The notes: generated by a model from the letters alone, not told the origin. Positions 1,916-63,515 are shown, numbered from the stretch's first letter. The stretch: 64,000 nucleotides of DNA from an uncultured Chloroflexia bacterium (GCA_963705425.1 CAVPJO010000015.1:94-64093); one strand, 5' to 3'. Program-made: numbers and translations.

Positions 1916-2049
1916 CTTACCACGCTAACCGCGCAGGGTGCCTGCGACTTACCACGCAAACCACGCAGGGTGCCGGCGACTTTCCACGCAAAGCACGCAG
2001 GGTGCCTGCGCGGGACTTACCACGCTTTCCACGCAAACCACGCAGGGGG
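1914..2049. repeat. Four tandem iteron-like direct repeats (32-36 nt)
   Basis: Units GACTTACCACGC(N)AACCRCGCAGGGTGCC(K)GC at 1914-1945, 1946-1977, 1978-2013 and 2014-2049, starting at the replicase stop codon. Confidence 0.85.
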
Positions 2050-2146
2050 TAGGAGAGAGAGGGAATCACTAGCGCGCAACCCTTCTTCTTCTTTCTCTTG
2101 TTTGTACAGGGCCCCTGCGCGGTTTGCGTGGTTACGGCGGAAAGTC
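1914..2146. other. Putative replication origin of the element (iterons + pyrimidine/AT-rich tract + inverted iteron)
   Basis: The iteron array is followed by the tract CCTTCTTCTTCTTTCTCTTGTTTGTACA (2081-2108), the lowest-GC stretch nearby. An inverted iteron copy CCTGCGCGGTTTGCGTGGTTACGGCGGAAAGTC follows at 2114-2146. The region lies directly downstream of the replicase gene. Confidence 0.55.
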
Positions 2147-2219
2147 CCTGCCCGCCGATGACCACCCCCTCGATCGTCGCGCCGACGGCGCGACCCCCGA
2201 TGCCTGCCAGGAGGACCCC

Positions 2220-3012
2220 GTGACCACCGCTGTGCCCGCCACCGCATCCGACCACCGCCAAGCCCAAGCCCGCCATCACCCGCGACCGCTACCACCGCTA
2301 CACCTACGAGGGCCAGACGTACCCGGGCGTCACGTCCGTCCTCCGCGTCCTCGACAAGTCCGACGCGCTCATGGCCTGGGCCAGCCGCAACACCGCCGAG
2401 GCCGCCCTGGCGCAGCTCGACCACCTCGCCGGCCTGCGCGACACCGTCGGACCGGAGGGCGTCATCAAGGCGCTGACGGCACGGTCAGGGCTGGAAGCGC
2501 GACGAGGCGGCCGCCGCTGGGCACGACCATCCACGAGCTGGCGGAGCTCATCGTCGCGGGGCGAGCCGCTGCCCGGCGGCACGTCCGAGACCGCGACCGC
2601 GATGGCCGAGGCGTGGGCGACCTGGTGGGCAGGCTCAGCGGCTGGCGCACCGCCTCGCCGAGGCCTTCGTCGTCGCACCCCGACGCTCGGCTACGGCGGC
2701 ACGCTCGACCTGCTCGCCTACGACGAGCAGGGCCGGACCGTCCTGGCCGACATCAAGACCGGCTAGCGTCTACCCCGAGGTGCGCCTCCAGCTGACCGGC
2801 TACGGCCTGCCGGGCACGCTCGTCCAGCCGCAGGGCATGCCCGAGGTCTAGCCGATGCCGGCCGATCGAGCGCTACGTCGTCCTCGACACGACGGACGAC
2901 CGGCGTGCGGGTCATCGACGTCGACGTCAACGACGACGACGTCGAGGCCTTCCGCGCCTGCCTCCCGCTGCACCACTGGCGGGCACACGGCGATGGAAGG
3001 GGCAGCGGCTGA
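2220..3012 (+). pseudogene. PD-(D/E)XK (RecB/Cas4-like, phage exonuclease-type) nuclease, frame-interrupted with an in-frame stop
   Basis: Pieces RYHRYTYEGQTYPGVTSVLRVLDKSDALMAWASRNTAEAAL, GTTIHELAELIV, YGGTLDLLAYDEQGRTVLADIKTG (D..DxK-type motif) and C-terminal FRACLPLHHW, spread over three frames. Start is uncertain. Confidence 0.55.
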
Positions 3013-3541
3013 TGGAGGGGACGGCGTGCCGCGTGATGCGACCCCGTCCGCTCCCGCCGTGGCCGCACCAACCGCCGGCGCGGGAATGACTGGGAACGCA
3101 CGCCTCGCCTCGGAGCTCGGCGGCCGCCGCGTCGGCCAGTACGGCGAGCCCACGGACGTGCTGACGCCGCTCCTCGCCGTCCAGGCGAAGGTGGGCAGCA
3201 GCTTCTCGGAACGCTACTGGCGGTGGCTCCAGGCCATCCCCCGCACCGGCGATCGCATCCCGGTGCTCATCGTGGGCGATGCGCCGGGACCAGGCCATCG
3301 GCGTCGCGCCTTCGTCGTCATCGAGCTCGGCGACTTTCGCGACCTCCACGGGGAGGACGGGCCGTGAAGCGGCCACGGCGTCTGCGCCTCATCGCCGACC
3401 GAGCCCGCCGACCGGTGCGACGCCGCGCCACCGTCGGCCATGAACCCCGTCGTCCTCGCGCTGGTGGCCGCACTCCGGGACGTCGAACGACGGCGGGGTC
3501 GAGGTACAGTCCCCTGCCCCTCGGACACGGAGGACCGCCGC

Positions 3542-5112
<1,571 letters not shown>

Positions 5113-5325
5113 ACAAGGGACCGCCGCGACACATAGTCGCGCGGAATCGGGATTATAGGCCACCTTGTGTGAGCCTTCCGACACTCTCGCGCGGAGGCCA
5201 CGCTCGTCGCCGGGCTGCTGCTGGCGGCCATCGGGTTGTATCAGCTCGTCATCGGCGGTCACGGGGTGCCAGGCGAGGCCGGCGCGGTCATCGTCGGTGT
5301 CGCTCCATCTCGGAGGCTGTTCACA

Positions 5326-9177: not shown

Positions 9178-12001
9178 ATGCCCATGTCCGATGCGCAGCC
9201 ACCTGCGCGCACCGCGCGCGGCGATCGAGCCAACCCGGCCGTCGAGGCGGAGCCGGCCGGCATCGGTTCATCGAGCGCACCGGACTCGCTCTCACGCGAG
9301 GTCCGGCTGCTGGGCTCACTGCTGGGCCAGGTCATCGCCGAGCAGGCCGGTGAAGCGATCCTCGACCTGGTCGAGCGCGTGCGCAAGCTCACCATCGACA
9401 TCCGCAAGAACCCCAGCCCCACCCGCCAGCTGGGCCTGCGCGCGATCCTCGAGGAGCTCTCGATCGAGCAGACCGAGGCGCTCATCAAGGCCTTCAGCCT
9501 GTACTTCCATCTCACCAACCTGGCCGAGGAGAAGCACCGCGTGCGGCGTGTGCGCAAACGCGCCCGCACGTCGACTCATGGCCAGGAGGGCTCCATCGAG
9601 GCGGCCGTGCGCAAGCTGCTCAAGGAAGACTCGCCCAGCGCGAGTCCAGGAGTTGCTCGACAGCCTGTCGATCGGTCTCGTCCTGACGGCGCACCCCACC
9701 GAGGCGCGACGGCGCACGATGCTGGTGGCGCTGCGACGCACGTTCTCGCTCATCGACCGCCTCGACGATCCCCGCCTGACGCCCAACGAGGACTTCGAGA
9801 TCCGACGCCGGCTGCGAGAGGAGATCTCGCTGCTGTGGCGCACCTCCGCGCTGCGCACCGAGCGCCCCTCCCCCCTCGACGAGGTGCGCACGGCGCTGCT
9901 CTTCTTCGACGAGACGCTCTTCCAGGTCACGCCGTACGTGTACCGCACGGTCGACCGCGTGCTCGACCTGGCCCCGTGGGTCAGTGACGGCGAAGAGGTC
10001 GGCAGCACTTCGGGCCCGGCACGTGACAGCGGCCACACGGGTACCCGCCCACCAGCGGTCAAGGCCTACCTGCGCTGGGGCTCGTGGATCGGCTCGGACC
10101 GTGACGGGCACCCCCGCGTCACGGCCACGACCACTCGGGAAGCGGCGGCTATCGGTGCCGACCATGTGCTGCGCGGTCTCGAGCACGTGGCCATGCGCCT
10201 CAGCCACACCGTGACGCCCACGCATATCGGCGATGACGTCTCGCCACAGCTGCGAGCGCGTCTGGATCTCGACCGCGACGAACTCGGCAATGCCTACGAC
10301 GAGATCGTCGCGCACTACCCCAACGAGCCTTACCGCCAGCGCTTCGGGTCCATCGCCGAGCGCTTGCGCCAAACCCGCCATAGACTCGTCGGCGGCCGCG
10401 GGCCCGGCGCCGGCTATCTGACACCCGGCGAGCTGCTCGCGGAGATCGACGAGCTGCAGGCCGCCCTCGTCGACGATGGCATGGCTCGTGTCGCCTACGG
10501 CGAGGTCCAGGCCCTGCGCTGGCAGGTCGAGACGTTCGGCTTCCACGCCCTCTCGCTCGAAGTCCGGCAACACAGCGAGGTCCACGCAGCCACGCTTGCG
10601 GCACTGCGTGACGGCGTGATCCTCGGCGAGCGCACGGTCGCTCCCGGCGTCACCGCGGGCGAGGTGCTCGAGACGTACCGGGCCATCGCCGACATCCAGC
10701 ACCATTTCGGGTCGGAAGCCTGCCAGCGCTATGTCATCAGCTTCACGCGCGAGGCCCAGGATGTCTACAACGTGCTTGAACTGGCCGACTACGCAGGACT
10801 GCCGCGCGACGCCCTCGATGTCGTGCCCTTGCTCGAGACGGCCGAAGCCCTCGACGCTGCCGACCAGCTCCTGGATGACATCCTTAGCGATGCTAACTAT
10901 CGGGATCACGTGCGCATCCGTGGCGACCACCAGGAAGTGATGCTGGGCTACTCGGACTCGACCAAGGAATCGGGGGCGTTGGCCGCGGCCTGGCTGCTCC
11001 ATGGTGCCGAGACGAAGCTGGTTGAGGCGGCCGCGCGGCATGGCGTCAAGCTGACGCTGTTCCACGGCCGTGGTGGCGCCATCGGCCGAGGCGGGGGCCC
11101 CATGAGCCGCGCCATCCTCGCGAGCGCACCGCATTCGCTAGACGGCACGCTCAAGATCACCGAGCAGGGCGAGGTCGTAGCCGACCGCTACGCCAACTTC
11201 GACATCGCCATGCGCCATCTCGCGCAGCTCACCAACGCGGTCCTGGTGGCCTCGTCACCGGGGCACGAACAACAAGCCAAGGATGCCCAGTTGCGCGGCA
11301 AGACCATCCTAGAGGAGCTGGCCGAGCGATCGGCACAGGTCTACCGGTCGCTGGTCTGGGAGGACCTCGGCTTCGAGGCCTTCTTCGTGGCTGCCACCCC
11401 GATCGCCGAGCTGTCCGGACTGACCATCGGCTCGCGCCCATCCGCCCGCGGCGGCGGCGCCGTGTCGCTGGAGACGATGCGCGCCATCCCCTGGGTCTTC
11501 TCGTGGGCGCAGGCACGCCTGTTCCTGCCAGCCTGGTTTGGGCTGGGCACCGCCGTGGAGAGCTACGAGACGGAACACGGCAGCGGCGCGACGGAGTCGC
11601 TGCAGGACCTCTACCGGGAGTCGCCCTTCTTCATGGGCGTCATCGACGTCATGGAGATGGCCCTGGCCAAGGTCGACCTGGCGGTCGCCCAGCGCTATGC
11701 CAGCCTTGCCCCGCAACCGGATGCAGACCGCATCTGGGAGCTCATCCGATCCGAGTTCGAGCGTACGGTGGCGGCAGTCCTGCGCATCAGCGGCCGCGAG
11801 CGACTGCTCGACGCGGCGCCGTCCCTGCAGCGTTCCATCTCGCGGCGCAACCCGTATGTCGACTCGCTCTCGGAGCTGCAGGTGATGCTCCTGGGCCGGT
11901 TGCGCGCGCTGCCCGAGGACGACCCTGAGCGCGAGCGCCTCCGCCGACTGGTGCAGCTCACCGTCAGCGGCGTGGCCGCCGGCCTCCAGAACACGGGCTA
12001 G
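9178..12001 (+). CDS. ppc: Phosphoenolpyruvate carboxylase (one frame interruption near 9640-9650)
   Basis: N-terminal part lies in the frame of ORF 9175 (LLGSLLGQVIAEQAG, FSLYFHLTNLAEE). The rest lies in ORF 9191-12001 with TAHPTEARRRT, VMLGYSDSTKESG, FHGRGGAIGRGGGP and the C-terminal QNTG. Confidence 0.92.
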
Positions 12002-15165: not shown

Positions 15166-17239
15166 CCGACCACGTCACGCCCACCACCCTGCCGCTCGAC
15201 GATGAGCTCATCCGAGCTGCGGTCGACATGTCCCAGCGCTTCGGCCGCGATTCCGAGTACTCCCGCGGTGGTGGCGGCAACTCGTCGGTCAAGGCCGGTG
15301 GCGTGGTGTACATCAAGCCCAGCGGCGTACCCCTGGCGACCATCGAGGCGGACGATCTCGTACCGCTCGCGACCGGGCCCCTGTTGGAGCTCCTGCTCGA
15401 AGGTGGTGCCGAGGTCGACGAGGCGCGCATCCCCGGTGCGCCCGACCCCGTCATGCGCGCCGCCGCCAAGGTGCGCCTGGCCGAGGCCAAGGGCCGGCGT
15501 CCGTCGGTTGAGCTGATGTTCCACTCGTTGCTGCCCGAGCGCTTCGTGCTGCACACGCACCCCATCGTGCCCAACGCCGTGACCTGCAACCAGGACGGCG
15601 AGGCCATCATGGGCGACCTCTTCGGCGACGAGGCCCTGTGGGTCCCCTATACCGACCCCGGCCTGCCCCTGGCGCGCAAGATCCACGAGCTGCGCGAGGC
15701 ACACGTGGCGCGCACGGCCAGCCCGCGCCGAGGATCACCTTCATGGGCGACCACGGCATCATCGTCTCGGCCGACACCACCGACGAGGTCGCGGAGCTGT
15801 GCGAGCACGTCATGGGCACGGTCCGTGCCGCCATCCAGCGGAGCGGCATCGTCATCAGCAGCAGCGGTCGGGCCGCGGCCCGCATCGCCGCCGACGAGGC
15901 CCGCGCCACGGCGATGGTGAGGGTCATCGCGCCGACGTTGCGCTCGCTGCTCTCGGCCGAGGGTGGACCGCTCAAGATCGTCACTTATGACGCCGCACCG
16001 GGCGCGGCCGAGTACCTGGAGTCCGAAGATGGCAGCAACGCCGTCAAGGGCGGCCCCATGACGCCCGACCAGATCGTCTATTCAGGTTCCTTCCCGCTGT
16101 TTTTCGACCCGCCCTCCGAGGTGGCCCTCGAGGACATCCCGGCGCTGCTCAAGGCGGCCCTCGAGGCCAACATCGAGGCACACGGCTCGACCCCCATCGT
16201 CACGGTCGTCCCGGGCCTGGGCATCTTCGCCGCCGGCGATACCTGGAAGGAAGTCGACACCGCCCGTCATATCTACCTGGACTGCCTGCGTGTCTACGAG
16301 GCGGCCGACTCGATCGGCCGGGTGCGTGCCCTCTCTGACGACGAGCGCGGCTTCATCGAGCACTGGGAGGTGGAGGCCTATCGTCGCGGTGCTGCGGCCT
16401 TCGGGCGCTCTCCGGGTCGTTTTGCCGGCAGGGTCGCGCTGATCACCGGTGCGGCCCAGGGCTTCGGCCTTGGTATCGCCCAGGGACTTGCGGCGGAAGG
16501 CGGCCACGTCGTCCTTGCCGACCTGCAGGCTGATCAGGCCGCCATCGAAGCTGCCGCCATCGAAGCCGAGCACGGCCCCGGCCGTGCCTGGTCCGTGGCC
16601 ATGGACGTGACCGACGAGGGCTCCGTCAATGCTGCCATCACGGCCGCGGTCGAGCACTTCGGCGGTCTCGACCTCTTCGTCTCCAACGCCGGCGTCTTGC
16701 GCGCCGGGGGCGTAGCCGAGCAGCCCGTCGCCGACTTCGACTTCGTGACCCAGGTCAACTATCGCGGCTACTTCCTCGGCGTCCGCGCGGTGGCGCCCAT
16801 CCTGGCCGCGCAGCACGCTGCCCGGCCCGACTACCTCGCCGACATCGTCGAGGTCAACTCCAAGTCGGGCCTGGTCGGCTCCAAGCGCAACTTCGCCTAC
16901 GCCGGCTCCAAGTTCGGCGGGGTCGGCCTGACCCAGTCGTTCGCGCTGGAGCTGGTCGAGGACGGCATCAAGGTCAATGCCGTCTGTCCCGGCAACTACT
17001 ACGAGGGACCGCTCTGGTCCGACCCCGACAACGGCCTCTTCGTGCAGTACCTGCGCGAGGGTAAGATCCCCGGTGCCACCAGCATCGACGAGGTCCGGGC
17101 CGCCTACGAGGCCAAGGTCCCGATGGGCCGCGGCTGCACACCCGGGGACGTGGTCGAGGCCATCCTCTACCTTGTCCACCAGCAGTACGAGACCGGGCAG
17201 GCACTGCCGGTCACCGGAGGCCAGGTGATGCTCTCATGA
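15162..17239 (+). CDS. Bifunctional class II aldolase / short-chain dehydrogenase (RhaEW-like); one frame interruption near 15710
   Basis: Aldolase/adducin domain: GGGNSSVKAGGVVYIKPSGVPL, FHSLLPERFVLHTHP. SDR domain: ITGAAQGFGLGIA, YAGSKFGGVGL. Pieces lie in frames 14037 and 15638. Confidence 0.85.
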
Positions 17240-50868: not shown

Positions 50869-51129
50869 ATGAGCGAACACGCCAAGTCCGAACAGGCCTG
50901 TCCGGTTTGCGGGCAGCACACGCTGGCACTCGACCGACCACCGGAGATCGACGTCATGGGCGTGCAGGCCTACAGCGACATGCTCGGCATGGGCGACCTC
51001 CACAACGAGGGCGCCATGGCCATCGTGTGTCTCAATTGCCAGACGCTGTGGAAGGACAAGGATGCCTTCGACCGCGGCGAGCCCGAGCCTGAGGTCGCCT
51101 CAGATGGGAGTGACGACTCCGGGGAGTGA
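50869..51129 (+). CDS. Small zinc-ribbon protein
   Basis: 86 aa with two CxxC pairs (CPVCGQH, CLNCQT) and an acidic tail. Its last codons and stop lie inside the 16-nt tandem repeat. Confidence 0.55.
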   Translation: MSEHAKSEQACPVCGQHTLALDRPPEIDVMGVQAYSDMLGMGDLHNEGAMAIVCLNCQTLWKDKDAFDRGEPEPEVASDGSDDSGE

Positions 51130-51180
51130 CGACTCCGGGGAGTGACGACTCCGGGGAGTGACGACTCCGGGGAGTGACGA
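51106..51180. repeat. 16-nt tandem repeat, 4.7 copies, each unit a small hairpin
   Basis: GGGAGTGACGACTCCG at 51106, 51122, 51138 and 51154, with a partial copy at 51170. Each unit contains GGAGT-GACG-ACTCC. It is followed by 2 copies of the 15-nt unit TGTTCCGTGTGAC (51181-51209). Confidence 0.95.
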
Positions 51181-51340
51181 TGTTCCGTGTGACCGTGTTC
51201 CGTGTGACGCGTCGCGATCGGCCCTCGCCGGTTTGCCGTTGGCCCTCCCCCGTTCGGCCTTGGCCGTTCCCGTTTGCCGTTGAACGGGCGAATGCGACCA
51301 GCGAAGCACTGATCTCGAGCGAACGGCCGGCCGTCTGCGC

Positions 51341-53190: not shown

Positions 53191-53265
53191 TGGTCGGGGT
53201 GGCGGGGATCGAACCCGCGACCTCATGCTCCCAAAGCATGTGCGCTACCTCTGCGCTACACCCCG
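53191..53265 (-). tRNA. tRNA-Pro (anticodon UGG), CCA encoded
   Basis: Reverse complement: acceptor CGGGGTG/CACCCCG, D arm GCGC-AGAGGTA-GCGC, anticodon stem CATGC/GCATG with loop TTTGGGA, variable AGGTC, T arm GCGGG-TTCGATC-CCCGC, then ACCA. Length 75 nt. Confidence 0.92.
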
Positions 53266-53335
53266 ACGAGTTCGTGCGTGACTAGGGTACACAGGGCTGC
53301 CTTGGAGCGGTAGCCAGAGGGCCTACAGCGCTTTG
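53227..53335 (-). repeat. Native copy (A) of the repeated segment: tRNA-Pro 5' half plus about 70 nt upstream region
   Basis: This segment recurs in copies B, C, E and D. The identity starts at GCTCCCAAAGCATG (anticodon loop) and runs through GAGTTCGTGCGTGACTAGGGTACACAG to GGCCTACAGCGCT. Confidence 0.85.
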
Positions 53336-53348
53336 ACTGCCGGTCGGT

Positions 53349-54638
53349 CTAGCGCTTGATGCCCTTGCTGATGCAGCCGAGACGGTGGGACTCCACGGTG
53401 ACGTCCACGAAGCCGGCCGCTTCCATCTGCCCCCGGCGATCGTCCGCCAGGACCGCCCGGCCACCACGCCGCAGGACGCGGTACATCTCCCCGATCGCGG
53501 CCTGGGCCTTGTCGTCGTAGCAGCCGATGTCGTTGCTGGTGACAACGCTGAACGTGTCGTCGGCCCACGGTAGCTCGGTCACATCGCCGACCTTGAACTC
53601 CGCCGTCCCGGCCCCGACACGTTCCTCGCTCTCCTGGCGGGCGATGTCGATGAATGTCGCCGAGTGGTCGACGCCCGCGATGAGGCGCGCGCCGGCACAA
53701 CGCGTGCGCAGGAACGTGCCGCTGCCACAAGCTACGTCGAGCACGTTGTCATCGGGACCGACGCCCAGCGCTTCCGCGAAGCCGTCGTAGAGCCACCACA
53801 CGAGCCGTGGGTAGACCCGTGCCCAGAGATACGCCCAGCGACCCTCCAGGCGCATGCCGCTATCGTTGAAGCGGGCCTCGACGCGGCCCCATCCGAGGGC
53901 AGCTCCGACCAGGGCCGGGACCGACAGGGCGGCCGTCGCGACCGCCGGGCCCAGGCGGCGCCGGGCCAGCCAGGTGAGGGCCCCCATCAAGCCAGCCCAC
54001 GGCCAGACCCAGACCAGGTCGGCCTTCATCGGCGGGGGACCAGCCTCGTCGACGGGGTCGAAGCGGACGAAGCAGAAGCGATCGATGTTGGCCGCGAAGT
54101 CCTCGGCTGTCTCGCCGAGTCCCTCGGCCCGCAGCATCCATCGCAGCATGGTCCCGGTGGCGCCCGGCGTCCGCTGGTAGAGCATGACCGCCTCGTCACG
54201 CTCGGTGACGCGAGTGGACCGGGCGGTCCACGTCTTGTCGCGCCGCTGCAGCGTGACGATGGGGTCGACCGAGAGGTTGCCATACCAGTGTGCCCGGTCG
54301 CCGAACGGGTTCACCACGTACAGGCGATCGTCGATGAACATGGCACTGACGACGACATGGCGCGGCAGACCGCTCGTGCGACCGATCGTGGTCAGGACCA
54401 TGTCGTTGTCGAATCGTCCGTAGCCCAGTCTGAAATCCGGTCGTCACGAGCTTGTGCTGGGTGCGAGCGAGGACGTTGTGTGGGTGCTCGTTGCCCCATG
54501 TCACGAAACGCATGAGCAACCGCTCGAGCCGCGATCTTCGGCCTTAGGCGCAACTCCCTGCTTCGCGGCGCTCCGGTCGTCTACACGCTGGGCGACAGCG
54601 GCGAACGGGATGTCCCGCTCGGCGGCCACGGTTGCCAT
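53349..54638 (-). CDS. Fusion protein: DUF385 (deazaflavin-dependent nitroreductase-like) domain + membrane segments + class I SAM methyltransferase; about 2 N-terminal frame interruptions
   Basis: ORF 53349-54401 has VLTTIGRTSGLPRHVVV..NPFGDRAHWYGNLSVDPIVTLQ (DUF385 pattern), hydrophobic LVWVWPWAGLMGALTWL..ALSVPALVGAALGW, and the MT motifs VLDVACGSGTFL and YRVLRRGGRAVL. An upstream extension (LMRFVTWGNEHPHNV and MATVAAERD with GAGGGGG before the ATG at 54638) lies in other frames. Confidence 0.7.
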
Positions 54639-54765
54639 GTCATGCCCCCTCGCCGCGTATCGCGGCGCTGCTAGCGTTCCGGCATTGCGGTCGCTTCGAT
54701 TCTATGAGCGAGGGGAACCGTCGAGCCGGACGGCCCGCCGAGACGACGGAAGTGTCGACGTTCTG

Positions 54766-54972
54766 CACTCGCGAACCGCACAACAATCGAGGCCTTCACC
54801 GCTCACGCCGTCGTGCGTGGGACCCGGGGGCCTTCGCCGCAAACCCCTCGTGGGCTCCCGAAGCATGTGCGCTACCGCTGCGCTACACCCCGACGATGTT
54901 CGTGCGTGAATAGGGTACACAGCGCGCGTCTCGGGCGGTAGCGGAGTGGCCTACAGCGCTCGAAATCGCACG
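54766..54972 (-). repeat. tRNA-Pro-half repeat unit, copy B
   Basis: A non-tRNA arm (CACTCGCGAACCGCACAACAATCGAGGCCTTCACCGCTC...) is followed by tRNA nt 1-40 (54854-54892; anticodon-loop reads UUCGGGA = CGG) and then an upstream-region homolog ending GCCTACAGCGCTCGAAATCGCACG. Confidence 0.85.
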
Positions 54973-55025
54973 ACGAGTCATCAGGGCGCCGGTGACGCCT
55001 TGACCTCCGGCCAGCCAGCCAGGCC

Positions 55026-55702
55026 CTAGGGCGATGGCGGACCGGCCTGCTCCTTGGTGGCGTGCACCAGCCTGGACTTGTACGCCACCGGCAAGACCGA
55101 GAGAGCGACGTCTACGAAGCCAGCCTTCTCCACGAGGCGCTGCGCGTCGGCATCGCTCCAGTTCCAGACGCCCCAGGCGTTTCGCGCGGCTGATTGGTCC
55201 GTCGCGCCCCAGCCGGCCTTGGCGTACTCGCCCAAGGTGAAGACGGCCCGTCCGCCGGGGCGAAGGACGCGATACATCCCCCGCAGCGTGCCCTCGGGGT
55301 CGCCGATGTGCTTGAGCGCTTCGAGCGAGGTGACGACGCTGAAGCGGCCGTCCTCCCAGGGCAGGTCCGCCGATCACCGAGGACGATCTCGGCCGTGCCT
55401 GCAGCGATGCGCTCGGACAAACGCTCGCGCGCAGCGCCGACCTGGTCTCCGAGATGTCGAGGCCGGCCACGTAGCGGACGTGCGCGCGTGCTCCGCGAGG
55501 AGCCTGCCCGACCCGCAGCCGATGTCGAGGAGCTCGTCGTCGGGCCGGAGGGGAAGCTCGGCCGCCATGGCTCGTGTGTATTGCTTCATGGCCGACCCCA
55601 TCACGCGGGCGCCGACCCACCCGACAGCGCCGCGCGGCTCCCCGAACAAGCGGCTCCAGAGCTCTCTGCGATAGCCGACCGATCGTCCGCCCGTCGGGCC
55701 AT
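55026..55702 (-). CDS. Class I SAM-dependent methyltransferase; at least 3 frame interruptions, 5' boundary approximate
   Basis: LWSRLFGEPRGAVGWVGARVM, LLDIGCGSGRLL, RYVAGLDISE, AAGTAEIVLGD, DLPWEDGRFSVV and MYRVLRPGGRAVFTLG, ending VLPVAYKSRLVHATKEQAGPPSP. Pieces lie in frames 55374, 55112, 54883 and 55026. Confidence 0.75.
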
Positions 55703-56540
55703 CGCTCGCACCCGCTCGACGTTGGCCTCCGACGGAGCAGGCTCGCGCCGGAGCTCGGACGGCAGGTCCTGCCCGCTGAGCCAAGCCTCGACCGTGCGGA
55801 TGTGCAGGTCGGGTGCCTGCCGCTGCCAGCAGTGGAAGAGGCCGGGCGCATACCAGGCCTCGCCGTGGGGCATGAGCACGGCCAGGGCCGCGTTGGTCTC
55901 TCGGGTGTCCCCACCCCGGAACCCGGATTCCCTCTCCCCGGCGATGAGCAGGGTCGGACATGGCGCATCGATGACCGCGGAGGTCCTGAAGCACTCTGCG
56001 ATGGCACGCCCGAACGCCCGGCGCGATGCGACGCGCAGGTCGGCCGGGTCATGCGTATCCCGGTTGAGCGCCAGGATCGGGCGGGTATGGATGAATGGCG
56101 CCAGCAGGACAGACGAGGGCGACGAGCCGACGGCTCCGAGCGCGGACCGGGGTGCCGTCGATGATGGCCCGCTCGACACGGTCGGGATGGCGGCGCAGCA
56201 GCGCGTGGATGATCATGCCACCCGAGGAGATGCCGACGACACTGGCCCGTCGTGCCGGGACGCGCTGCTCGATGAGCCTGGCGACGAGGTCCGCCGTCTG
56301 GCTGAATGACGCCGATGGCAGCTGGCTGCTGCGCCCGAAGCCGGGCAGGTCCGGGGCCAGGCAGTGGAAGTCGGTGAGCCTCTCCATGTGCCGCGCCACT
56401 CCCGGCCGCTCTGGCCGGCTCCGTGGATGAAGACGATGGCCGGCGAGCCGGGAGTGCCCGACTCCTCGACGTACATGCCGCCTGGCCCGCGAGTCCGGGG
56501 TCGGCTCCGGTGCGACCGTGCTCCGCACCTTCGCGTTCAT
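55700..56540 (-). CDS. Alpha/beta-hydrolase; several frame interruptions, 3' boundary approximate
   Basis: MNAKVRS start at 56540 (ATGA overlap with the upstream MT stop). YVEESGTPGSPAIVFIHGAGQSG, FHCLAPDLPGFGRS, the nucleophile elbow VVGISSGGMI and LLIAGERE. Confidence 0.72.
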
Positions 56541-57285
56541 GTCCGACCTCCTCCACGAGCACCGTCGTCTCGGCGGGCTCCTCGATGCCGGCGCTGCCGG
56601 CTTGGTGCCCCGGACGAGCTGGAAGGAGAGCACCGGCAGGACCGAGACCGAGACGTCGCCGAAGCCGGCCTCCTCCACCAGCCGCCGCGCGTCGGCGTCG
56701 CTCCAGCGCCAGAAGCCCCATTCGTTCTCGTGCCCGAGTCGGGCTCGGCGTCTCGGACGGCACCCATCGTGACGACCGCCCGCCCACCAGGGCGGAGCAC
56801 GCGGTGCATCTCGCTCAAGGCCCTCGCGGGTCGGGGACGAACTCGAGGCGTCGAAGGCGGTGACGACGCTGAAGCGGGCGTCCTCCCAGGGCAGGGCCGC
56901 GGCGTCACCCAGGACGATCTCGGCCGTGCCCGCGGCGAGACGGTCGGCGAGGCGTTTCCGGGCCATGCCCACCTGGATCTCCGAGGCGTCGAGGCCGGCG
57001 ACGTGGCGCACGTGCGCCGCGTGCTGGCGATGAGCACCCCGCCGACCCGCAGCCGACGTCGAGCACGTCGTCGTCAGGCCGGAGGTCCAGCTCCCCGGCC
57101 ATGTCGCGGTAGAACTTGCCCTTCATCGACGCCATCAGCCGGGCACCGATCCAGCCCGAGGGACCGTGGGGCACTCCCGAAGCAACGCGTAGTCGAACGA
57201 CTCCTACGCAGACCCATCGCACGTTCCCCCTTGCGCGGGCCGGGTTCGCCAGTGGCTCGGCGCGGTCCTCAGCGGCCATGGTCAC
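56537..57285 (-). CDS. Class I SAM-dependent methyltransferase (paralog of 55026-55702); several frame interruptions
   Basis: MAAEDRAEPLANPAR..HGPSGWIGARLMASMKGKFYRDMAGELDLRPDDDVLDVGCGSAG, RHVAGLDASE, AAGTAEIVLGDAAALPWEDARFSVV, MHRVLRPGGRAVVTMG and WRWSDADARRLVEEAGFGDVSVSVLPV. Confidence 0.75.
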
Positions 57286-57606
57286 GGACCGTGCGTCGTC
57301 AGCCTCCCGCTACCCACCATTCTCGCGCCGCCGCCAAGACCATGGTGCGGTCGGGACTTATCAGCCGGGCGGCAGCGAGTCAGCATCATGGAGGCTGCCC
57401 GGATCACGCTCGCGAACCGCACAATAATCGAGGCCTTCGCCGCTCTGGCCGTCGCGCGTGGGACCCCGGAGCCTTCGCCGCTCGAGCCCGAAAGGCTCCC
57501 AAAGCATGTGCGCTACCTCTGCGCTACACCCCGACGAGTTCGTGCGTGACTAGGGTACACAGCGCGCCTCGATAGCGACACCGAGGGGCCTACGGCGCTC
57601 GAAGCG
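57235..57606 (-). repeat. tRNA-Pro-half repeat unit, copy C (long form: core 57405-57606 plus a 170-nt leader homologous to 62919-63088)
   Basis: The arm CACGCTCGCGAACCGCACAATAATCGAGGCCTTCGCCGCTC... is followed by tRNA nt 1-40 at 57495-57533 (loop identical to the real tRNA) and then the upstream-region homolog. The leader block 57235-57313 is about 85% identical to copy D. Confidence 0.85.
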
Positions 57607-57616
57607 CGGCTGGGCA

Positions 57617-57892
57617 CTAGCGGTCGCGGATGTAGACCGCCAGTGGCTCACCGTGCCGCTTCGGCTTGTCCGCTGGTTCCCCGACCTCCTCGATGAGCGG
57701 GCGAAATGGCTCAACGTAGAAGTCGGCGATCGCGCCTGGTGTATCCCAGACGTTGAGCACCGTCACGCGCCCCTCGCCAGCGTCCCAGGCGACCGAGACC
57801 ACAAGGGCCTCGGGTGGCTCGGTAACGATGCGGGTGCCCTCGCTGATCGCCTCCCACAGCTCGCGAGTGGAGGTCACTGTCTCGACGAACAT
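57617..57892 (-). CDS. Small hypothetical protein (possibly ABM/dimeric alpha-beta-barrel-like)
   Basis: Uninterrupted 91 aa with genome-typical GC-rich codons. The fold guess comes from size and pattern only. Confidence 0.5.
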   Translation of the reverse strand: MFVETVTSTRELWEAISEGTRIVTEPPEALVVSVAWDAGEGRVTVLNVWDTPGAIADFYVEPFRPLIEEVGEPADKPKRHGEPLAVYIRDR

Positions 57893-57898
57893 CCGACG

Positions 57899-58267
57899 TT
57901 ACAGCGTCGCGATGCCGAGGATGTTGCCCTCGGAGTCCTTTAGCCAGGCCATCTTCCGGCCACTGGGGCTGGTGGCGATGCTGTCGACGGTGCGGAAGGC
58001 CTCACCGAAGTCGTAGTCCTCGAAGACCGCACCGCGGGACTTGAGCTCAGCCACCGTGGCCAGGACGTCGTCGGCGCCGATGACGGCGGCGGTCGCCTGG
58101 TTCGTGCCGGCGAACTCGGATCGGTAGAGCATGAAGCCTGTGTCATCGACCTGATACCAGGCGCTCCCGTCCTCGGTGATCTCTGTCGGTTCAAGCTGGA
58201 GGACCGAGGCATACCAAGCCTTGGCTCGCTCCATGTCGGATGCGGGGAGGGTGGCAGCGATCTGCAT
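57899..58267 (-). CDS. VOC / glyoxalase-family protein
   Basis: Uninterrupted 122 aa with MERAKAWYASVLQLEP and WLKDSEGNILGI, typical of the VOC fold. Confidence 0.72.
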   Translation of the reverse strand: MQIAATLPASDMERAKAWYASVLQLEPTEITEDGSAWYQVDDTGFMLYRSEFAGTNQATAAVIGADDVLATVAELKSRGAVFEDYDFGEAFRTVDSIATSPSGRKMAWLKDSEGNILGIATL

Positions 58268-58539
58268 GGGTCATTCCTCGTGCGCCCCCCATGATTGGGA
58301 CGCGTGGCAGACCCGTGCGGAGTCGCCTCGCGAGGGGTCAGCATACGCTGTGCGCGCAGGCGGGCGGAGGACGGCTGTTCGGGCATAGGTTTCGCCCAGT
58401 CCGCCACCAAGCCGGCGGCCCTGGGGCTCGAACCCTCGGTTCACGAAGTACGCGAGCCGCCGCGCTTCGAAGTCAGACTCGGTCGCCGAGTCCTTCGGTG
58501 TTCGTGAGACGACGAAGGTCACGCTGAGCCGCCGGGCGA

Positions 58540-58610
58540 CCGAGTCGGCAACGGCCTCACTGTCCCCCGTTGGCTACGGCTCGTTCAGCGCTCGAACCGC
58601 ACCATAACCG
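58540..58610 (-). repeat. Truncated repeat copy (upstream-region part only)
   Basis: CCGAGTCGGCAACGG...TTCAGCGCTCGAACCGCACCATAACC matches the distal end of copies D and E (CCGAGTCGGTAGCGG...TTCAGCGCTCGAACCGCAC). No tRNA half is present. Confidence 0.6.
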
Positions 58611-58800
58611 GCACAGGCGGCCTCAACGGACCCAGACGGTTAGGGTCGCGCTTGTTGTCGGAACCAAGCCGCGAACCAGAATGCGGCCCTCGATCGGGCT
58701 TGAGCCAGCCACGAGCATCCACGATCCGCGGTCTGCACTTGGCGCGCCACGTGGCGTAGGATGTATCGTCCGTGGGGGTGCTTATCGCGGGAGACTCACT

Positions 58801-59453
58801 TTGCCTCACCGTCCGGCCTTGCTCCGCTCGATATCAGCCGCCGTCGTGCTCGCCCTCGCCCTCGGATCTACCGTGGCGGCCGGCCATCCAGAGGAACGGG
58901 GGCTGTCCGATGAAGCCAGTGCGCTCGTCCGGAACGCGGTGCCGATGTCGGACGACCAGAGCTGCGCGTTCGAGGAGCGCAACTTCTCCGGTGGCCGAAC
59001 GGCGCTCCGGCAAGATGGCACCGCGGACGACGTGGACGTCGAAACAGAGCCACCCTCCCCTTCAGGACCTCGATCGAGGTCGACGGCGCGATCGACGCGG
59101 TCCCATCGTCAGCGACCGAGGCGTGCGCTACCGCCCATCAAGGGACGACCGCAGTGGCGCAAGCCGCCGATGAGCCTCCGCCCGCGACGGTCGAGGTGGA
59201 AGCTCGGGACCTGTGGTTCAAACCGGCTGCGCTCACGGTCCCCGGCTCCGAGCACTGGACGATCAGGCTCAAGAACGCCGGACGTGTCGTACACAACCTG
59301 ACGGTGGACGAGCTCGGGATCGTGATCGTCGTGACCGCGGGCGAGCTGGGCGAAGCGATCCTGACCGATATCGAGCCCGGCACGTACGCGTTCTACTGCT
59401 CGATCTCCGGACATCGGGAAGCCGGCATGGTGGGCACGCTCACCGTCCAGTGA
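58801..59453 (+). CDS. Secreted cupredoxin (plastocyanin/azurin-like copper protein); frame interruption(s) around 59050-59160
   Basis: TTG at 58801 with signal-like LLRSISAAVVLALALGSTVAAG. The C-terminal domain in ORF 59154-59453 has VHNLTV and the copper-ligand pattern YAFYCSISGHREAGMVGTLTV (C..H....M). Confidence 0.7.
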
Positions 59454-59539
59454 TGGTGCGCTGGCCGCTGACGTTTGGAGAACTGAAAGAAGCGCGCCGG
59501 CCGTTGGCCGACGCGCTTCCTGTCAAGGCAGGCCGATCG

Positions 59540-60694
59540 CTACGGCTGGATGCTGACGAGCCCACCCGCGCCGGGTGGGCAGCCGGTGCAGGTCGAGACG
59601 TAGACCGTGCCATCGTCGGAGACGGCCAGACCGCCGGGCATCGGTAGGCCATCACTGGTGATGAGCTCTGCAGTGCCACCACCGGGGGGAACCTTCCACA
59701 GCCCACCCATGGGAGGTCCGTCTTCTCCCGCACTCAGGAGCCCTTCATGAGCGAGCTCGAGCACGTAGAGCGTGCCATCGAGCGCGAACTCGACGTCGAT
59801 CACGTTGGTGAAGCCATCGGCGTACACCGAAGGCTCCTCCCCGGGTGCGACGCGATACACCGCGGCGCCACCGGGCGGGAATGGGAAGCCGGTCAGTTCT
59901 CCTACATAGAGAGCACCATCATCGCCGAGCGCCACTCCTGTCGGGACCGGATCCATCGGAATCATGGGCGGCTCTGCGTCCGGGTCAGGCTCAGCTTCCG
60001 GGTCTGGCGGAGCGGGCTGCATCACGACTGGGAAGACAGCGAGGGTCGAGATGACACCCCCGGCATCAACGAGTAGCAGGGTGTTCGCGCCCGCGTCCGC
60101 GATGGCGGCACCTTCTGGCGTCTCCACCAATCCATGGGCATTCGAATCAGGCTCGGCATTGCCTGGCTGTTCGGCATCGGGGTTGACGGTTGTCTCGTAA
60201 TCAGCGACGTCGGCCACGCTCTGGGCCAAACCATCAGCATCGATGCGGTAGAGCTGGCCCATGCCCGCAGCGGCGCCGTCGGGGATGGACTCGCGGAACT
60301 CTGCAGACCCAGCAGCGGGGCCTCCGACCAGGAACCAAACGGTCCCATCGGCACCCACGGTGACATCCGATGGCCCGATAGCCTCTCCGGTCGCGGTGAG
60401 CCCAGAAGCAAGACCGTCGACGAGGGGTGAAGCCTCACCACCCGAGACAGCGGTGATAGCGCCACTCGCTCCGAAACACATATCGCCGAGTTCTGAATGC
60501 GTCGCACACGGCTCCGTGCCACCAACCCCTGCCTCAGCGACATAGATCGTGCCGTCGGCGCCGATGGCGACACCGCGGGGCGAATTCAAGCCGCCGACCA
60601 CTTCGGTGATCGCCGGTCCCTGTGCCGCCACTGGCGCAGCCACCGCGACCACCAACGCGACCCCCATCGCAATCCCCCTGCCGGTTCCCCGCAT
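59540..60694 (-). CDS. ScyD/ScyE-family beta-propeller-like secreted protein
   Basis: Uninterrupted 384 aa with a signal peptide. GGLNSPRGVAIGADGTIYVAEAGVGG..C....GASGAIT and repeated DGT(V/L)Y(V) blades. The family assignment is from remembered sequence patterns. Confidence 0.65.
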   Translation of the reverse strand: MRGTGRGIAMGVALVVAVAAPVAAQGPAITEVVGGLNSPRGVAIGADGTIYVAEAGVGGTEPCATHSELGDMCFGASGAITAVSGGEASPLVDGLASGLTATGEAIGPSDVTVGADGTVWFLVGGPAAGSAEFRESIPDGAAAGMGQLYRIDADGLAQSVADVADYETTVNPDAEQPGNAEPDSNAHGLVETPEGAAIADAGANTLLLVDAGGVISTLAVFPVVMQPAPPDPEAEPDPDAEPPMIPMDPVPTGVALGDDGALYVGELTGFPFPPGGAAVYRVAPGEEPSVYADGFTNVIDVEFALDGTLYVLELAHEGLLSAGEDGPPMGGLWKVPPGGGTAELITSDGLPMPGGLAVSDDGTVYVSTCTGCPPGAGGLVSIQP

Positions 60695-61095
60695 GGGAAC
60701 ACCTCCATCAGGTCGGTGTGGTCGAACCCCGGTGGCTCACCGACAACGCTCATCCGAGGCTGGGCATATTGGGGCTCGTGGTCTCGAATGTCTACCTCAC
60801 CGCTAAACATTCTGGGAAATGCCAGTGATGGCGCGGAAGCGGGCTCGCAGGCCAGATACGCGATGCCCGATCCCGAGCGGCTGGAGAATGACCTCGACGA
60901 GCGCGCGTTTCGGTCGGCGACATCATCGTGATCTGGTACAGGGGGACCGGCGGCTAAGCTGGATTGTCGTGCTTCGAGCAGTGGCCGGACAGGGACCCTT
61001 GGACGATCCAGGGCTTCATCTTCTCCGGAGACCCGCCGACCCTGTAGGCCGGGCCGGGCAGCCTTGACTCTGCCCGGACCTCCAGCTGGGTGGAT

Positions 61096-61308
61096 CACGC
61101 TCGCGAACCGCACAATAATCGAGGCCTTCACCGCTCGGCCCGCCACGCTCGGGACCCCGGAGCCTTCGCCGCTCGAGCCTGAAAGGCTCCCAAAGCATGT
61201 GCGCTACCGCTGCGCTACACCCCGACGGAGTTCGTGCGTGCCTAGGGTACACAGCGCGCCTCGATAGCGACACCGAGTGGGCCTACAGCGCTCGAACCGC
61301 ACAATAAC
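61096..61308 (-). repeat. tRNA-Pro-half repeat unit, copy E
   Basis: The arm starts at 61096, tRNA nt 1-40 lie at 61186-61224, and the upstream-region homolog ends CGCTCGAACCGCACAATAACC (61289-61309). Confidence 0.85.
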
Positions 61309-61384
61309 CCCTGGGTGTTCGAGGTCGTGGACCATGACGGGGCTCGCGGCCGCGGATGCAGGTCTCCCGCGGCGACGTACGGAC

Positions 61385-62122
61385 TCAGGCGTGCAGGAAC
61401 TCGGGTTCGACGTGAACTGGTTCGCCCCGACTGAACCGGAAGTCGCATCGCTGTCCACCCTGGGCGATGGTCTCGGTCCGGTCGAGCTTCACATCCATGG
61501 CCGCAGTCATCGGATAGTCGATCCAACAGAGGTACGGAGCGAGCTCCGGGGCACCCTCGCGAGCGAGGTACTTGACGACGCCGCACTCGCTGTAGTCGAC
61601 GCCGAACTCGAACTCCTGCCCATCGCCATCCACGACCTCGAACACCCAGTCCTCCGGATAGCGGCGCTGCTGGCTAAGCGCAGCGACACGCCGTCGCCTG
61701 TCCATGCGCCTCCGACTGAAGTGGCGACGGCCTTGCCATCGCATGAGCCAGCGCATCGGGACGCTGTCGAAATAGCTGGCTGTTCCAGGGTAGAACAAGC
61801 GGGCAGCCTCCTCGACCGAGGCCCCACGCGCCTGTAGCGAGCGGTACATCGCCAGCCACGCAGCCGTCCAGTACAGAGATCGCGTGTTCGGGTTCTCGGC
61901 ACCGCCGATGTAGGGGAGATCAAGCAGCAAGGCCTCGAAGCGCTGGAGCGACTCCTTGACGATGGCCTCTCCCTCCGCTTTGCCGTAGGCCGCAGCGAGA
62001 TGCCTCCTGTAGTGGCGGAAGGCGAGCCGCACGTCCCACATGATCCGGGACTTGTGTTTCACGTACCAGCTATCGGTCTCCACTCCAGCCTCCTTCGCTG
62101 CTTGTCTCCCTGCCGCTGGCAT
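61385..62122 (-). CDS. L-2-amino-thiazoline-4-carboxylic acid hydrolase-family protein
   Basis: Uninterrupted 245 aa. The C-terminal SECGVVKYLAREGAPELAPYLCWIDYPMTAAMDVKLDRTETIAQGGQRCDFRF matches the family's Cys-containing signature region as I recall it. Confidence 0.65.
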   Translation of the reverse strand: MPAAGRQAAKEAGVETDSWYVKHKSRIMWDVRLAFRHYRRHLAAAYGKAEGEAIVKESLQRFEALLLDLPYIGGAENPNTRSLYWTAAWLAMYRSLQARGASVEEAARLFYPGTASYFDSVPMRWLMRWQGRRHFSRRRMDRRRRVAALSQQRRYPEDWVFEVVDGDGQEFEFGVDYSECGVVKYLAREGAPELAPYLCWIDYPMTAAMDVKLDRTETIAQGGQRCDFRFSRGEPVHVEPEFLHA

Positions 62123-62128
62123 CGGCTC

Positions 62129-62893
62129 TCAACCGACGGCGACGGCCTCCGCTGGGGCCGCCTCTTCCACCGCCTCGACGGAGGCTGGCTTCACAGCGGT
62201 GACGATCCGGACCTGGTCGCTGCCGAACAAGAGCCGGCAGATGGAGTTGGCGAGGCGGTTGTCCCCACCCGTCGGTCGGTATGCCATCGATACCTCGAAC
62301 CCCGCGGCCTCGACCATGCGCCGGACGTCAGCTTCGTTCCGCGAAACGTGCCCCAGGACCTTGCGGGGTTCGGCACCTTCCGGCATCCGCATACCGATCA
62401 TCATCACCGCACGTCCTCCTGGCCGGAGGACCCGGTGGAACTCGCGCAGGACACCGTCGGGATGGGGGAAGAACGAGAAGGCGTCCATGCACGTGAGCGC
62501 GCTGAAGCGATCGTCCGCCCATGGAAGCGCCTCGGCGTCGCCCTCGACGACCTCGGCGGTCCCGGCCGCGATGCGCTCGGCGAGCCGCTGCCGTGCCAGC
62601 TCGACCTTGATGTCGTAGAGGTCGAGGCCCGCCACGTAGCGAGCCGGCCGAGCGTACTGCTCGAGGAAGGCCCCGTCGCCGCAAGCGACGTCCAGGACCT
62701 CGTCCTCCGGTCCAGGGTCGAGCAGCTCGGCCATCAGTTTGTAGCCAGGCCCGTTCATCCAGCTGTTGATGGCGCTGGCGGTCGCGCCGCCCGGCATGTT
62801 GCCGGGGACCGCCGGGACCGACCGGGCGATCCAGAGCGCAACGGCGGCGAGCGCGGCGGTGGCGGCGAGCGCGACAAGAACCAGGCGACGCAT
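62129..62893 (-). CDS. Class I SAM-dependent methyltransferase with an N-terminal membrane anchor
   Basis: GGAGGACAGGAG lies before the ATG at 62893. MRRLVLVALAATAALAAVALWIA, VLDVACGDGAFL, YVAGLDL, AAGTAEVVEGDAEALPWADDRFS and FHRVLRPGGRAVMMIG. Uninterrupted. Confidence 0.8.
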   Translation of the reverse strand: MRRLVLVALAATAALAAVALWIARSVPAVPGNMPGGATASAINSWMNGPGYKLMAELLDPGPEDEVLDVACGDGAFLEQYARPARYVAGLDLYDIKVELARQRLAERIAAGTAEVVEGDAEALPWADDRFSALTCMDAFSFFPHPDGVLREFHRVLRPGGRAVMMIGMRMPEGAEPRKVLGHVSRNEADVRRMVEAAGFEVSMAYRPTGGDNRLANSICRLLFGSDQVRIVTAVKPASVEAVEEAAPAEAVAVG

Positions 62894-62918
62894 CTCCTGT
62901 CCTCCCCAACATGCATCC

Positions 62919-63294
62919 GCGGGCCGGGTTCGCCAGTAGCTCGGCACGGTCCAAGGCGGCCATGGCAGGGACCGGGCGTCGTAGCCTCCCGCTACATCAG
63001 ATTATCCCGTGGTCGCCAAGCCAGAAGTCACCGTCCAGGCGGCTCGCTCGGACAGCCATGGCTCCACCATCCGGAGTGCGCCGCAAACCACGCTCGCGAA
63101 CCGCTCAATAATCGAGGCCTTCACCGCTCGGTGCATCACGCTCAACGATCCGGAGCCTTCACCGCTCGAGCCTGAAAGGCTCCCATGGCATGTGCGCTAC
63201 CTCTGCGCTACACCCCGACGAGTCCGTGCGTGACTAGGGTACACAGGGTGCGTCCGAGTCGGTAGCGGTGGACCTTCAGCGCTCGAACCGCACG
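62919..63294 (-). repeat. tRNA-Pro-half repeat unit, copy D (long form: leader 62919-63088 plus core 63089-63294)
   Basis: The arm CACGCTCGCGAACCGCTCAATAATCGAGGCCTTCACCGCTC... is followed by tRNA nt 1-40 at 63179-63217 (loop reads CAUGGGA) and the upstream-region homolog ending TTCAGCGCTCGAACCGCACG. Confidence 0.85.
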
Positions 63295-63515
63295 CTGGCC
63301 CGGTCCTCTAGAGCTCAGTGATCAGCACCCATAGCCCGTTGGACAGTTCGACCAACAGCACTCCACACGGCGCGTTCCACTGCCAATGCCCGCGATGGCG
63401 GCAGCCACCGTTCCGGTGTCAGCAGCCACAGTGGTCGAAGTCTCCGCGTGGTGGTGTCCGCGATCGCGACCTCCTGCCACTGCGGCAGTGTCGGTTTGGG
63501 CCACCTACCGCTACG

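Follow-up and report, generated by a model that had tools for sequence, protein, structure and literature searches.

A co-oriented array of repeat units carrying the tRNA-Pro(UGG) 5' half separates small, rapidly exchanged gene modules in uncultured Chloroflexota

Integrons, and the attC clusters that lack an integrase, consist of small co-oriented accessory cassettes that are usually promoterless, and their attC sites are imperfect palindromes. Cis-mobilisable elements (CIMEs) are derived from decayed conjugative elements and usually number one or two per site, and the split tRNA genes of some archaea include isolated 5' halves that stop close to the anticodon loop, with non-tRNA sequence after them. 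This report concerns a stretch of 64,000 nucleotides from an uncultured Chloroflexia bacterium (GCA_963705425.1, CAVPJO010000015.1:94-64093; the whole stretch is called the window), in which the 5' half of a tRNA-Pro(UGG) gene recurs in a series of repeat units that separate small gene modules upstream of the intact gene. Among the tRNA-gene islands collected with Islander, 2083 of 3919 are anticodon-centred and attP measures ~250 bp (PMC4383910). A first-pass annotation of the window had stated that such islands normally duplicate the 3' part of the tRNA, and this needs to be adjusted because displaced 5' fragments are rare but known (159 of the 3919 islands; PMC4383910). Tandems of three or more are very rare in that collection, with 4 on record (PMC4383910). 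In Prochlorococcus, tycheposon islands of flexible genes lie at specific tRNAs including tRNA-Pro(tgg), with partial tRNA copies between insertions, heterogeneity that peaks beside the tRNA, and adaptive accessory cargo (bioRxiv 10.1101/2020.12.28.424599).

The intact tRNA-Pro(UGG) of the first-pass annotation was recovered by both ARAGORN and Rfam. Four further co-oriented copies of ~205 bp had been described; the four copies and their common strand were confirmed, and the unit was found to be longer (~235 bp). It is bounded by a direct repeat of ~20-25 bp, TTATTGTGCGGTTCG(C)GAGCG, designated R' on the 5' side and R on the 3' side, and has the order R' - U - tRNA nt 1-39 - arm - R, where U is ~60 nt of tRNA upstream sequence and the arm is a ~65-nt non-tRNA segment. 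Homology to the region in front of the tRNA covers ~70 nt in all, and the conserved non-tRNA stretch that follows the half is ~90 nt long. In the unit profile, a hidden Markov model (HMM) of 276 columns, R' occupies columns 29-47, U 48-109, tRNA nt 1-39 (the half) 110-148, arm1 149-178, arm2 179-213 and R 214-238. The tRNA and the units of the window are as follows.

53191..53265, minus strand: intact tRNA-Pro(UGG) (ARAGORN; Rfam tRNA match, 71.5 bits)
53266..53340, minus strand: upstream region (U) of the intact tRNA, homologous to U of every unit (alignment; unit-HMM match to positions 20-134)
54749..54987, minus strand: unit 1, arm variant 'B' (CACGAGGGGTTTGCGG) (HMM coordinates, alignment)
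57385..57619, minus strand: unit 2, arm variant 'A' (HMM coordinates, alignment)
58540..58610, minus strand: solo R'/U-start fragment (GGTTATGGTGCGGTTCGAGCGCTGAA...), remnant of a broken unit (alignment)
58702..58760, minus strand: degenerate unit start common to the window and a second locus, L003; a full unit follows in L003 and is interrupted in the window (alignment)
61084..61320, minus strand: unit 3, arm variant 'A' (HMM coordinates, alignment)
63072..63309, minus strand: unit 4, the most distal visible (HMM coordinates, alignment)

Copies of tRNA nt 1-30 with at most one mismatch were found on the same strand at 54863-54892, 57504-57533, 61195-61224 and 63188-63217, and the arm end GGCCTCGATTATTGTGCGGTTCGCGAGCG was found again at the same four unit positions (chance expectation 0 in both cases). 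The upstream homology, 5' half and arm of the earlier description stand, with the correction that identity to the tRNA stops at nt 39 (GGGAGC) instead of nt 40; beyond it the units read CTTTCAGG... and the tRNA reads ATGAGG. What had been taken for a truncated copy at 58540-58610 is a fragment as described, consisting of a solo R' and the start of the upstream region. Every unit match inside the window falls between 53 and 64 kb, and the array may continue past unit 4 beyond the window end. The intact tRNA is the downstream anchor of the array, and its anticodon loop (tRNA nt 31-37) is the presumed insertion point.

Conservation along the unit is uneven. The half, the GCGG.GAAGGC motifs and R are near-invariant, and arm1 and positions 180-197 are variable, which favours functional sites over neutral relics. 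The GAGCGGYGAAGGC motif is present three times in the right arm, and an invariant CTGTGTACCCTA box in U is presumed to be the -10 region. Judged from size and layout, the unit has the arrangement of a complete attP-type site, in which two arms with repeated motifs (R'/R and GAGCGGYGAAGGC) would flank a putative core at the anticodon loop. The internal junctions of a tandem array of integrated elements would be expected to resemble attP.

Loci and contigs compared with the window were given L-numbers. A scan of 185,579 species genomes for the R pattern returned 13 loci, 12 of which belong to metagenome-assembled genomes (MAGs) labelled uncultured Chloroflexia, all 12 with units; the thirteenth (L010, a Dehalococcoidia MAG) was rejected as a chance match within a coding region. 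The same kind of pattern scan applied to metagenomes gave 92 loci, of which 56 contain true units and 36 were discarded as chance matches in coding sequence. The loci of both scans, together with contexts fetched via protein look-ups, were then searched with the unit profile, yielding 136 matches in 74 loci (115 of them arm-bearing). Unit matches are co-oriented in every locus (both strands in 0 of 74), unit-to-unit spacing is 0.8-7.7 kb (median 1.7 kb), and an intact tRNA-Pro(UGG) forms the downstream end of the array in 12 of the 12 loci where that end is visible. Displaced tRNA 3' halves were found in none of the 74 loci. In the longest array (L108), 11 unit matches lie within 20.7 kb and the distal end adjoins hydrogenase-maturation genes. 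A generic dispersed repeat, such as a repetitive extragenic palindrome (REP) or a miniature inverted-repeat transposable element (MITE), which the first-pass annotation had named as a way in which its reading could fail, was rejected: true units in public data are found solely in arrays of a single orientation, with tRNA-Pro(UGG) as the terminus wherever this can be seen, and those of the window are equally confined. A protein name from a related MAG indicates Candidatus Limnocylindrales and points to Limnocylindria-type Chloroflexota as the host lineage; Limnocylindria is an abundant, uncultured lineage of soil and freshwater.

The array is flanked by SRPBCC, DUF2568 and GGDEF genes on one side and by HypA/cobW or ABC transporter genes on the other, and on the downstream side of the tRNA many genomes keep the same gene order (SRPBCC-like, DUF2568, GGDEF, aminotransferase, ResB). 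As a separate observation on this 3' side, two relatives (L113 3129-7850 and L114 4013-7830) have an additional 3.7-4.7 kb of genes separating the tRNA from the conserved SRPBCC gene, among them LPG_synthase_TM, glycosyltransferases, an ABC-2-related membrane protein and Glucos_trans_II. Since no tRNA 3' fragment lies beside these genes, the 3' side varies too, by another route. Also downstream of the tRNA, between the GGDEF and DUF2568 genes of the window (51106-51185), is a 16-bp tandem repeat, GGGAGTGACGACTCCG, of ~4.5 copies, each copy being an internal palindrome (GGAGT..ACTCC).

Module content turns over rapidly beside these conserved flanks. In L114, the closest relative found, the flanks are 89-93% identical to the window over ~12 kb, and none of its modules (alpha/beta hydrolase; beta-lactamase-fold; Phd...PIN) is common to the window, so that the alternative outcome raised earlier, of relatives that always carry the identical array, does not describe these genomes. 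L110 (GGDEF protein 82% identical) contains one module and one unit, which is degenerate. An empty tRNA-Pro site had been proposed as something to look for in relatives; the nearest case is L111 (GGDEF protein 59% identical), a near-empty site where a degenerate cargo-less unit remnant abuts U-tRNA. Module order differs from genome to genome, and individual modules have been transferred horizontally: the beta-propeller/cupredoxin block including unit 3 reaches 94.5% identity over 2.6 kb when the window is compared with L003 (blastn), whereas the flank of the L003 MAG (represented by L006) is 66-75% identical to the window, and an NYN-domain module is ~99% identical over ~1.05 kb between L004 and L008, whose core genes are 75.5% identical.

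Plain tandem segmental duplication, which the first-pass annotation had set as the null model, was rejected because the methyltransferase paralogs of the window are far more diverged (32-47% identical at the protein level by tblastn) than the units, which are 80-97% identical across genomes at the nucleotide level. Most modules are not related to each other, and repeats and methyltransferase genes did not arise together as ordinary tandem paralogs.

In the 115 arm-bearing units the junction between half and arm follows tRNA nt 39, two bases past the 7-nt anticodon loop, and this is the classical anticodon-type att position. For the comparison of breakpoints, units from different contigs that share one flank only were used. 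In left-shared pairs (left flanks 95-100% identical, right flanks unrelated), identity runs on through R' and U, the latter with 0-4 mismatches over 61-62 positions, and the sequences part at model positions 154-158, just past the half; U and the half therefore travel with the module upstream of them, in agreement with the earlier proposal that each module brings a replacement 5' half. In the best right-shared pair (window/L003), arm2 and R have 0/60 mismatches, arm1 has 6/30 and U has 9/61. Two contigs show further junctions inside the loop, at tRNA nt 31-33. At L108 9713 unrelated DNA is joined to the loop (...GTGTCCGC followed directly by TTGGGAGCC and the arm), at a place occupied by a full unit in L109 (97.6% identical), and at L002 2015 a ~390-bp deletion relative to the 96%-identical L003 has its right end within the loop (...CTCCGCCG followed directly by TGGGAGCC and the arm). 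Taken with the universal nt 39 junction, the two bracket the 7-9-nt sequence TT(T)GGGAGC as a putative recombination-prone core, which matches what is seen at anticodon-type att sites (PMC4383910). The anticodon-loop breakpoint of the first-pass annotation thus holds for these junctions; some recent boundaries lie elsewhere, in R or mid-arm. R as the sole crossover site was rejected, given that left-shared pairs break after the half and the best right-shared pair is intact through R and arm2.

Several loci contain altered units. Degenerate, cargo-less short units (a half*, a short arm with one GAAGGC motif, and R) were observed at L003 ~4100-4160, L031 ~930-980 and L111 8945-9045, where they directly adjoin U of the next unit or of the tRNA. 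The R' beside these short units is really the R of an older, decayed unit, and the arm of the full unit looks like an internal ~38-nt duplication of the short form. One unit in L108 is split by ~660 bp that contain a 119-aa gene on the opposite strand, with U at 16247-16332 (model 19-101) and the half and arm at 16991-17144 (model 92-245), so insertions are possible also between the presumed -10 box and the tRNA start.

With Islander-type islands (PMC4383910) the array shares a tRNA with co-oriented displaced self-fragments, a 5' fragment placed upstream, tandem accretion beside the tRNA, a boundary at the anticodon-loop sublocation, and a repeat unit of attP size. It differs in that no integrase, the defining Islander filter, is present in any array module; in that modules are mostly 0.6-3 kb and often under the 2-kb minimum of Islander; in the length of the arrays, which reach at least 11 units in 20 kb (L108) against the few Islander tandems; and in that every displaced fragment carries the tRNA upstream/promoter region. 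The likeness to tycheposons lies in the island site, the partial tRNA copies and the features of heterogeneity and cargo given above. Tycheposons, however, are defined by their own tyrosine recombinase and replication/packaging genes, none of which was found in the array modules scanned, and no conserved ~235-bp promoter and arm unit before each small module is described for them (bioRxiv 10.1101/2020.12.28.424599).

Like integrons, the array is composed of small, mostly co-oriented accessory and toxin-antitoxin cassettes with a conserved repeat between them and no recombinase within them, insertion is at one array end, and content turnover is very fast. Unlike integrons, no adjoining intI gene was found in the array flanks examined, the R'/R repeats are direct, the array docks at a tRNA gene, and each repeat apparently has its own promoter. 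An attC-like hairpin was rejected, because folding of the arm as single-stranded DNA, tested on both strands, was not better than that of shuffled sequence (z = +0.4 to +0.7). In common with CIMEs and accretion-mobilisation, integrase-less DNA lies between att-like sites in tandem at a tRNA gene, and CIMEs can be mobilised in trans by a related element; in contrast to CIMEs, no cognate integrative element was found in the array contexts examined, and the array comprises dozens of different 1-3-kb cassettes. The halves resemble those of archaeal split tRNAs in ending near the anticodon loop before non-tRNA sequence. A split-tRNA reading was nevertheless rejected: there are no 3' halves, the break follows nt 39 and not nt 37/38, the halves share the anticodon of the intact gene, and the organism is a bacterium with a complete tRNA-Pro(UGG). 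The array acts like a tRNA-anchored additive island or tandem att array and also like an integron array, yet it falls outside each of these classes. A literature search turned up no account of arrays like these in Limnocylindria, nor of cassette arrays built on promoter-bearing 5' halves.

The layout is unusual in that dozens of integrase-less cassettes are each headed by a complete attP-like unit with the tRNA upstream region and 5' half. The locus is also a strong hot spot of gene turnover, as flanks ~90% identical enclose no common cargo and near-identical modules occur in genomes ~75% identical elsewhere. If a recombinase acting in trans were involved, the system would have solved the integron problem, the capture and expression of promoterless genes, a second time and independently, by docking at a tRNA gene, and might lend itself to reuse as a tool. 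If there is no recombinase, the arrays would be a clear natural case of cassette exchange by portable homology.

The reading given an even chance is that of a lineage-specific, hypervariable cassette array (an 'additive' genomic island) at tRNA-Pro(UGG), founded by site-specific insertion that possibly continues and reshuffled by homologous recombination. In outline, a small circular module [arm-R-cargo-R'-U-5' half] would insert Campbell-fashion into the resident tRNA gene at its anticodon loop; the incoming U and 5' half would become the new front of that gene, and the old U and 5' half would be pushed upstream, where they would precede and probably transcribe the new cargo. Repeated insertion would produce [U-half-arm-R-cargo]n followed by U-tRNA, with the newest module adjoining the tRNA. 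Such serial insertion at the loop would account for the one-sided layout, the way U and half stay with the module upstream, the junctions centred on the loop and the tRNA-type upstream region before older modules. Because the cassettes are without a recombinase, the founding or ongoing site-specific step would be carried out in trans or by an enzyme since lost, and present-day exchange between genomes also uses homologous recombination in conserved unit segments (the 5' half and R). U probably acts as a promoter, as suggested by its place in front of the tRNA gene, by the invariant box and by the riboswitch-led operons that follow units immediately. A stronger version, an integron-like capture platform of a new type, is considered possible but doubtful; under it an unlinked chromosomal recombinase would insert and excise promoter-equipped mini-cassettes at the anticodon loop, each cassette would replace the tRNA promoter and 5' half, older cassettes would inherit a tRNA-type promoter, and R and the GAAGGC motifs would be arm-type binding sites. 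A number of results weigh against site-specific insertion as described. No integrase or transposase was found among 78 open reading frames (ORFs) of the window and of modules of other loci by Pfam, although frameshifted genes could escape; neither Phage_integrase nor another recombinase is in the precomputed Pfam lists of five ~21-kb contexts (L108, L110, L111, L113, L114); IMG/VR viral contigs scanned for R, the half-arm junction, the 5' half and the U box gave 0 matches and so no phage-borne attP; and in blastn of the full unit against phage and plasmid records the tRNA-Pro part alone matched. The earlier proposal of serial capture with a recombinase in trans therefore found no backing in the form of a recombinase, a circular form or a phage- or plasmid-borne copy in these searches. 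A simple sigma-70 scan of the units detected no promoter. The left end of the NYN block lies inside R (~position 224), with a differing arm upstream, and the window/L003 block has its boundary mid-arm (~position 177), on account of which a strict anticodon-loop crossover in every recent event was rejected. Linkage disequilibrium spans ~10-15 nt only among 67 non-redundant units, which makes the units fine-scale mosaics, and homologous recombination or gene conversion between them is clearly active. It is also possible that the identical anatomy stems from a single ancestral site-specific event and later spread by homologous recombination.

These last results are what would be expected of a recombinase-free array, in which the half-arm junction arose once, by accident or by an old integration, and the units have since served as portable homology and promoters while modules were swapped purely by homologous recombination. 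The breakpoints in R, in the arm and in the half, the local linkage, the lack of a recombinase near the arrays examined, and the one homologous junction and arm common to all units speak for it, yet the L108 and L002 junctions attach non-homologous DNA to the loop at points no more than 1-2 nt apart, which homologous recombination does not explain. Moreover, R, the GAAGGC motifs and the arm are kept between genomes with core genes ~70-75% identical, which indicates a sequence-specific function, and the layout is strictly one-sided and co-oriented at a single tRNA in every genome. Weighed together, these points leave exchange by homology alone a tentative alternative to the cassette array founded by site-specific insertion. 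It is improbable that the unit is primarily a regulatory or RNA element, that is, a copied strong tRNA promoter and a structured 5' leader (a tRNA D-arm/anticodon-arm mimic, arm and R) that would co-regulate or stabilise accessory operons, with R/R' as operator or upstream activator sites and the array as an ordinary variable region. R' does lie natively upstream of the tRNA's U, even at near-empty L111, and riboswitch-led operons directly downstream of units suggest that the units probably supply the promoter. RNAalifold proposed a long-range helix (GGGAGCC/GGTTCGC) and a second helix (186-191/219-224, paired in 63-66 of 67 sequences), but changes in them are one-sided and wobble-compatible alone, with no compensatory pairs; as the unit also has no match to an Rfam family, a leader RNA structure was rejected, and the shuffling result for the arm stands against it as well. 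A conserved leader peptide from the ATG in the half was likewise rejected, T at model position 166 producing an in-frame TGA in 23 of 67 units. A regulatory role would further leave unexplained the end of identity at the anticodon loop, the restriction to one tRNA and the extreme turnover, and the riboswitch operon occurs elsewhere without units. Frameshifts in the window are typical of nanopore assemblies and many short metagenome contigs end within units, as might be seen if repeats had been mis-joined during assembly or binning of long-read MAGs. Such an artefact is very hard to credit, since the units are far shorter than long reads, differ mutually by 5-20%, and share one layout across at least 12 independent MAGs and across 56 JGI/ENA metagenome contigs that other projects produced with other technologies.

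The cargo of the window was assigned to families as follows, where SAM denotes S-adenosylmethionine and GC3 the GC content at third codon positions.

53349..54401, minus strand: module 1, F420H2_quin_red (DUF385-type) domain fused to a SAM methyltransferase (Pfam)
55029..57285, minus strand: module 2, methyltransferase, alpha/beta hydrolase, methyltransferase (tblastn, frame and GC3 analysis, Pfam)
57229..57316, minus strand: c-di-GMP-II-GAG riboswitch-variant match between unit 2 and the module 2 methyltransferase (Rfam 46.7 bits, gathering score 40)
57617..58267, minus strand: module 3, 91-aa protein without Pfam match (57617-57892) and glyoxalase/VOC-family protein (57899-58267) (Pfam)
59154..60694: module 4, cupredoxin (59154-59453, plus strand) and NHL/strictosidine-synthase-like beta-propeller (59540-60694, minus strand) (Pfam, blastn)
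61385..62947, minus strand: module 5, SAM methyltransferase (62129-62947) and ATC_hydrolase-family protein (61385-62122) (Pfam)
62913..62998, minus strand: c-di-GMP-II-GAG riboswitch-variant match between unit 4 and the module 5 methyltransferase (Rfam 57.6 bits)

The gene families given in the first-pass annotation were borne out by Pfam, with the corrections that the cupredoxin lies on the strand opposite to the tRNA and that module 2 is frameshifted. According to the frame and GC3 analysis the reading frame of module 2 is broken several times, either by long-read homopolymer or sequencing errors or by pseudogenisation of an old cassette; split gene calls were also observed in related contigs (e.g., GlnA and ResB in L113 and L114). 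Across loci, the cargo includes methyltransferases, hydrolases, beta-lactamase-fold proteins, toxin-antitoxin pairs, AbiEii, NYN, MIP and LuxR-type regulators, mostly co-oriented with the units, and is of the kind typical of accessory regions or cassettes.

Pfam scans between 52 and 64 kb turned up no integrase, as the first-pass annotation had also reported. All GC3-supported ORFs of the window from 1 to 52.3 kb were inspected by eye, and the sole recombinase trace in the 64 kb is an ORF at 3368-4576 (plus strand) with a sub-threshold match to Pfam 'Recombinase' (serine recombinase; E = 1.3e-3), 48 kb from the array. This ORF carries the motif LTNPIYAGRL and lies just upstream of a different tRNA, tRNA-Pro(CGG) (5036-5112, minus strand). 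A second ORF at 4673-5155 (plus strand), in another frame, crosses tRNA-Pro(CGG) on the opposite strand and may be the frameshifted continuation of the first. A 518-aa ORF at 3-1556 has no Pfam match and is primase/polymerase-like by eye, and the GC content of window positions 1-5155 is 71-74% (68% in the whole window). This segment is a probable remnant of an integrated element.

Both riboswitch matches of the window have counterparts elsewhere, at L106 10910-10993 and 17835-17920, L107 9899-9983, and L108 9900-9986 and 13337-13423. Where the downstream gene was checked, most matches precede a SAM-methyltransferase operon, often with an ATC_hydrolase-family gene, and these operons occur both within arrays and in unit-free genomes; two further matches in L106 precede a HEAT-repeat gene and a lectin-domain gene. 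The riboswitch-methyltransferase-ATC_hydrolase operon is present without any unit in L106 and L107, which are other Chloroflexota contigs, indicating that the cargo is autonomous and was captured and that the unit is not part of the operon. The GGDEF diguanylate cyclase is a conserved neighbour of the tRNA locus. In L107, which is unit-free and has a cassette-like gene content, 51-nt repeats (86-94% identical) precede operons at 9850-9900 and 16048-16098 and at 4427-4477 and 5203-5253. One of them lies directly upstream of a riboswitch, and these short repeat families may be an analogous promoter or repeat system.

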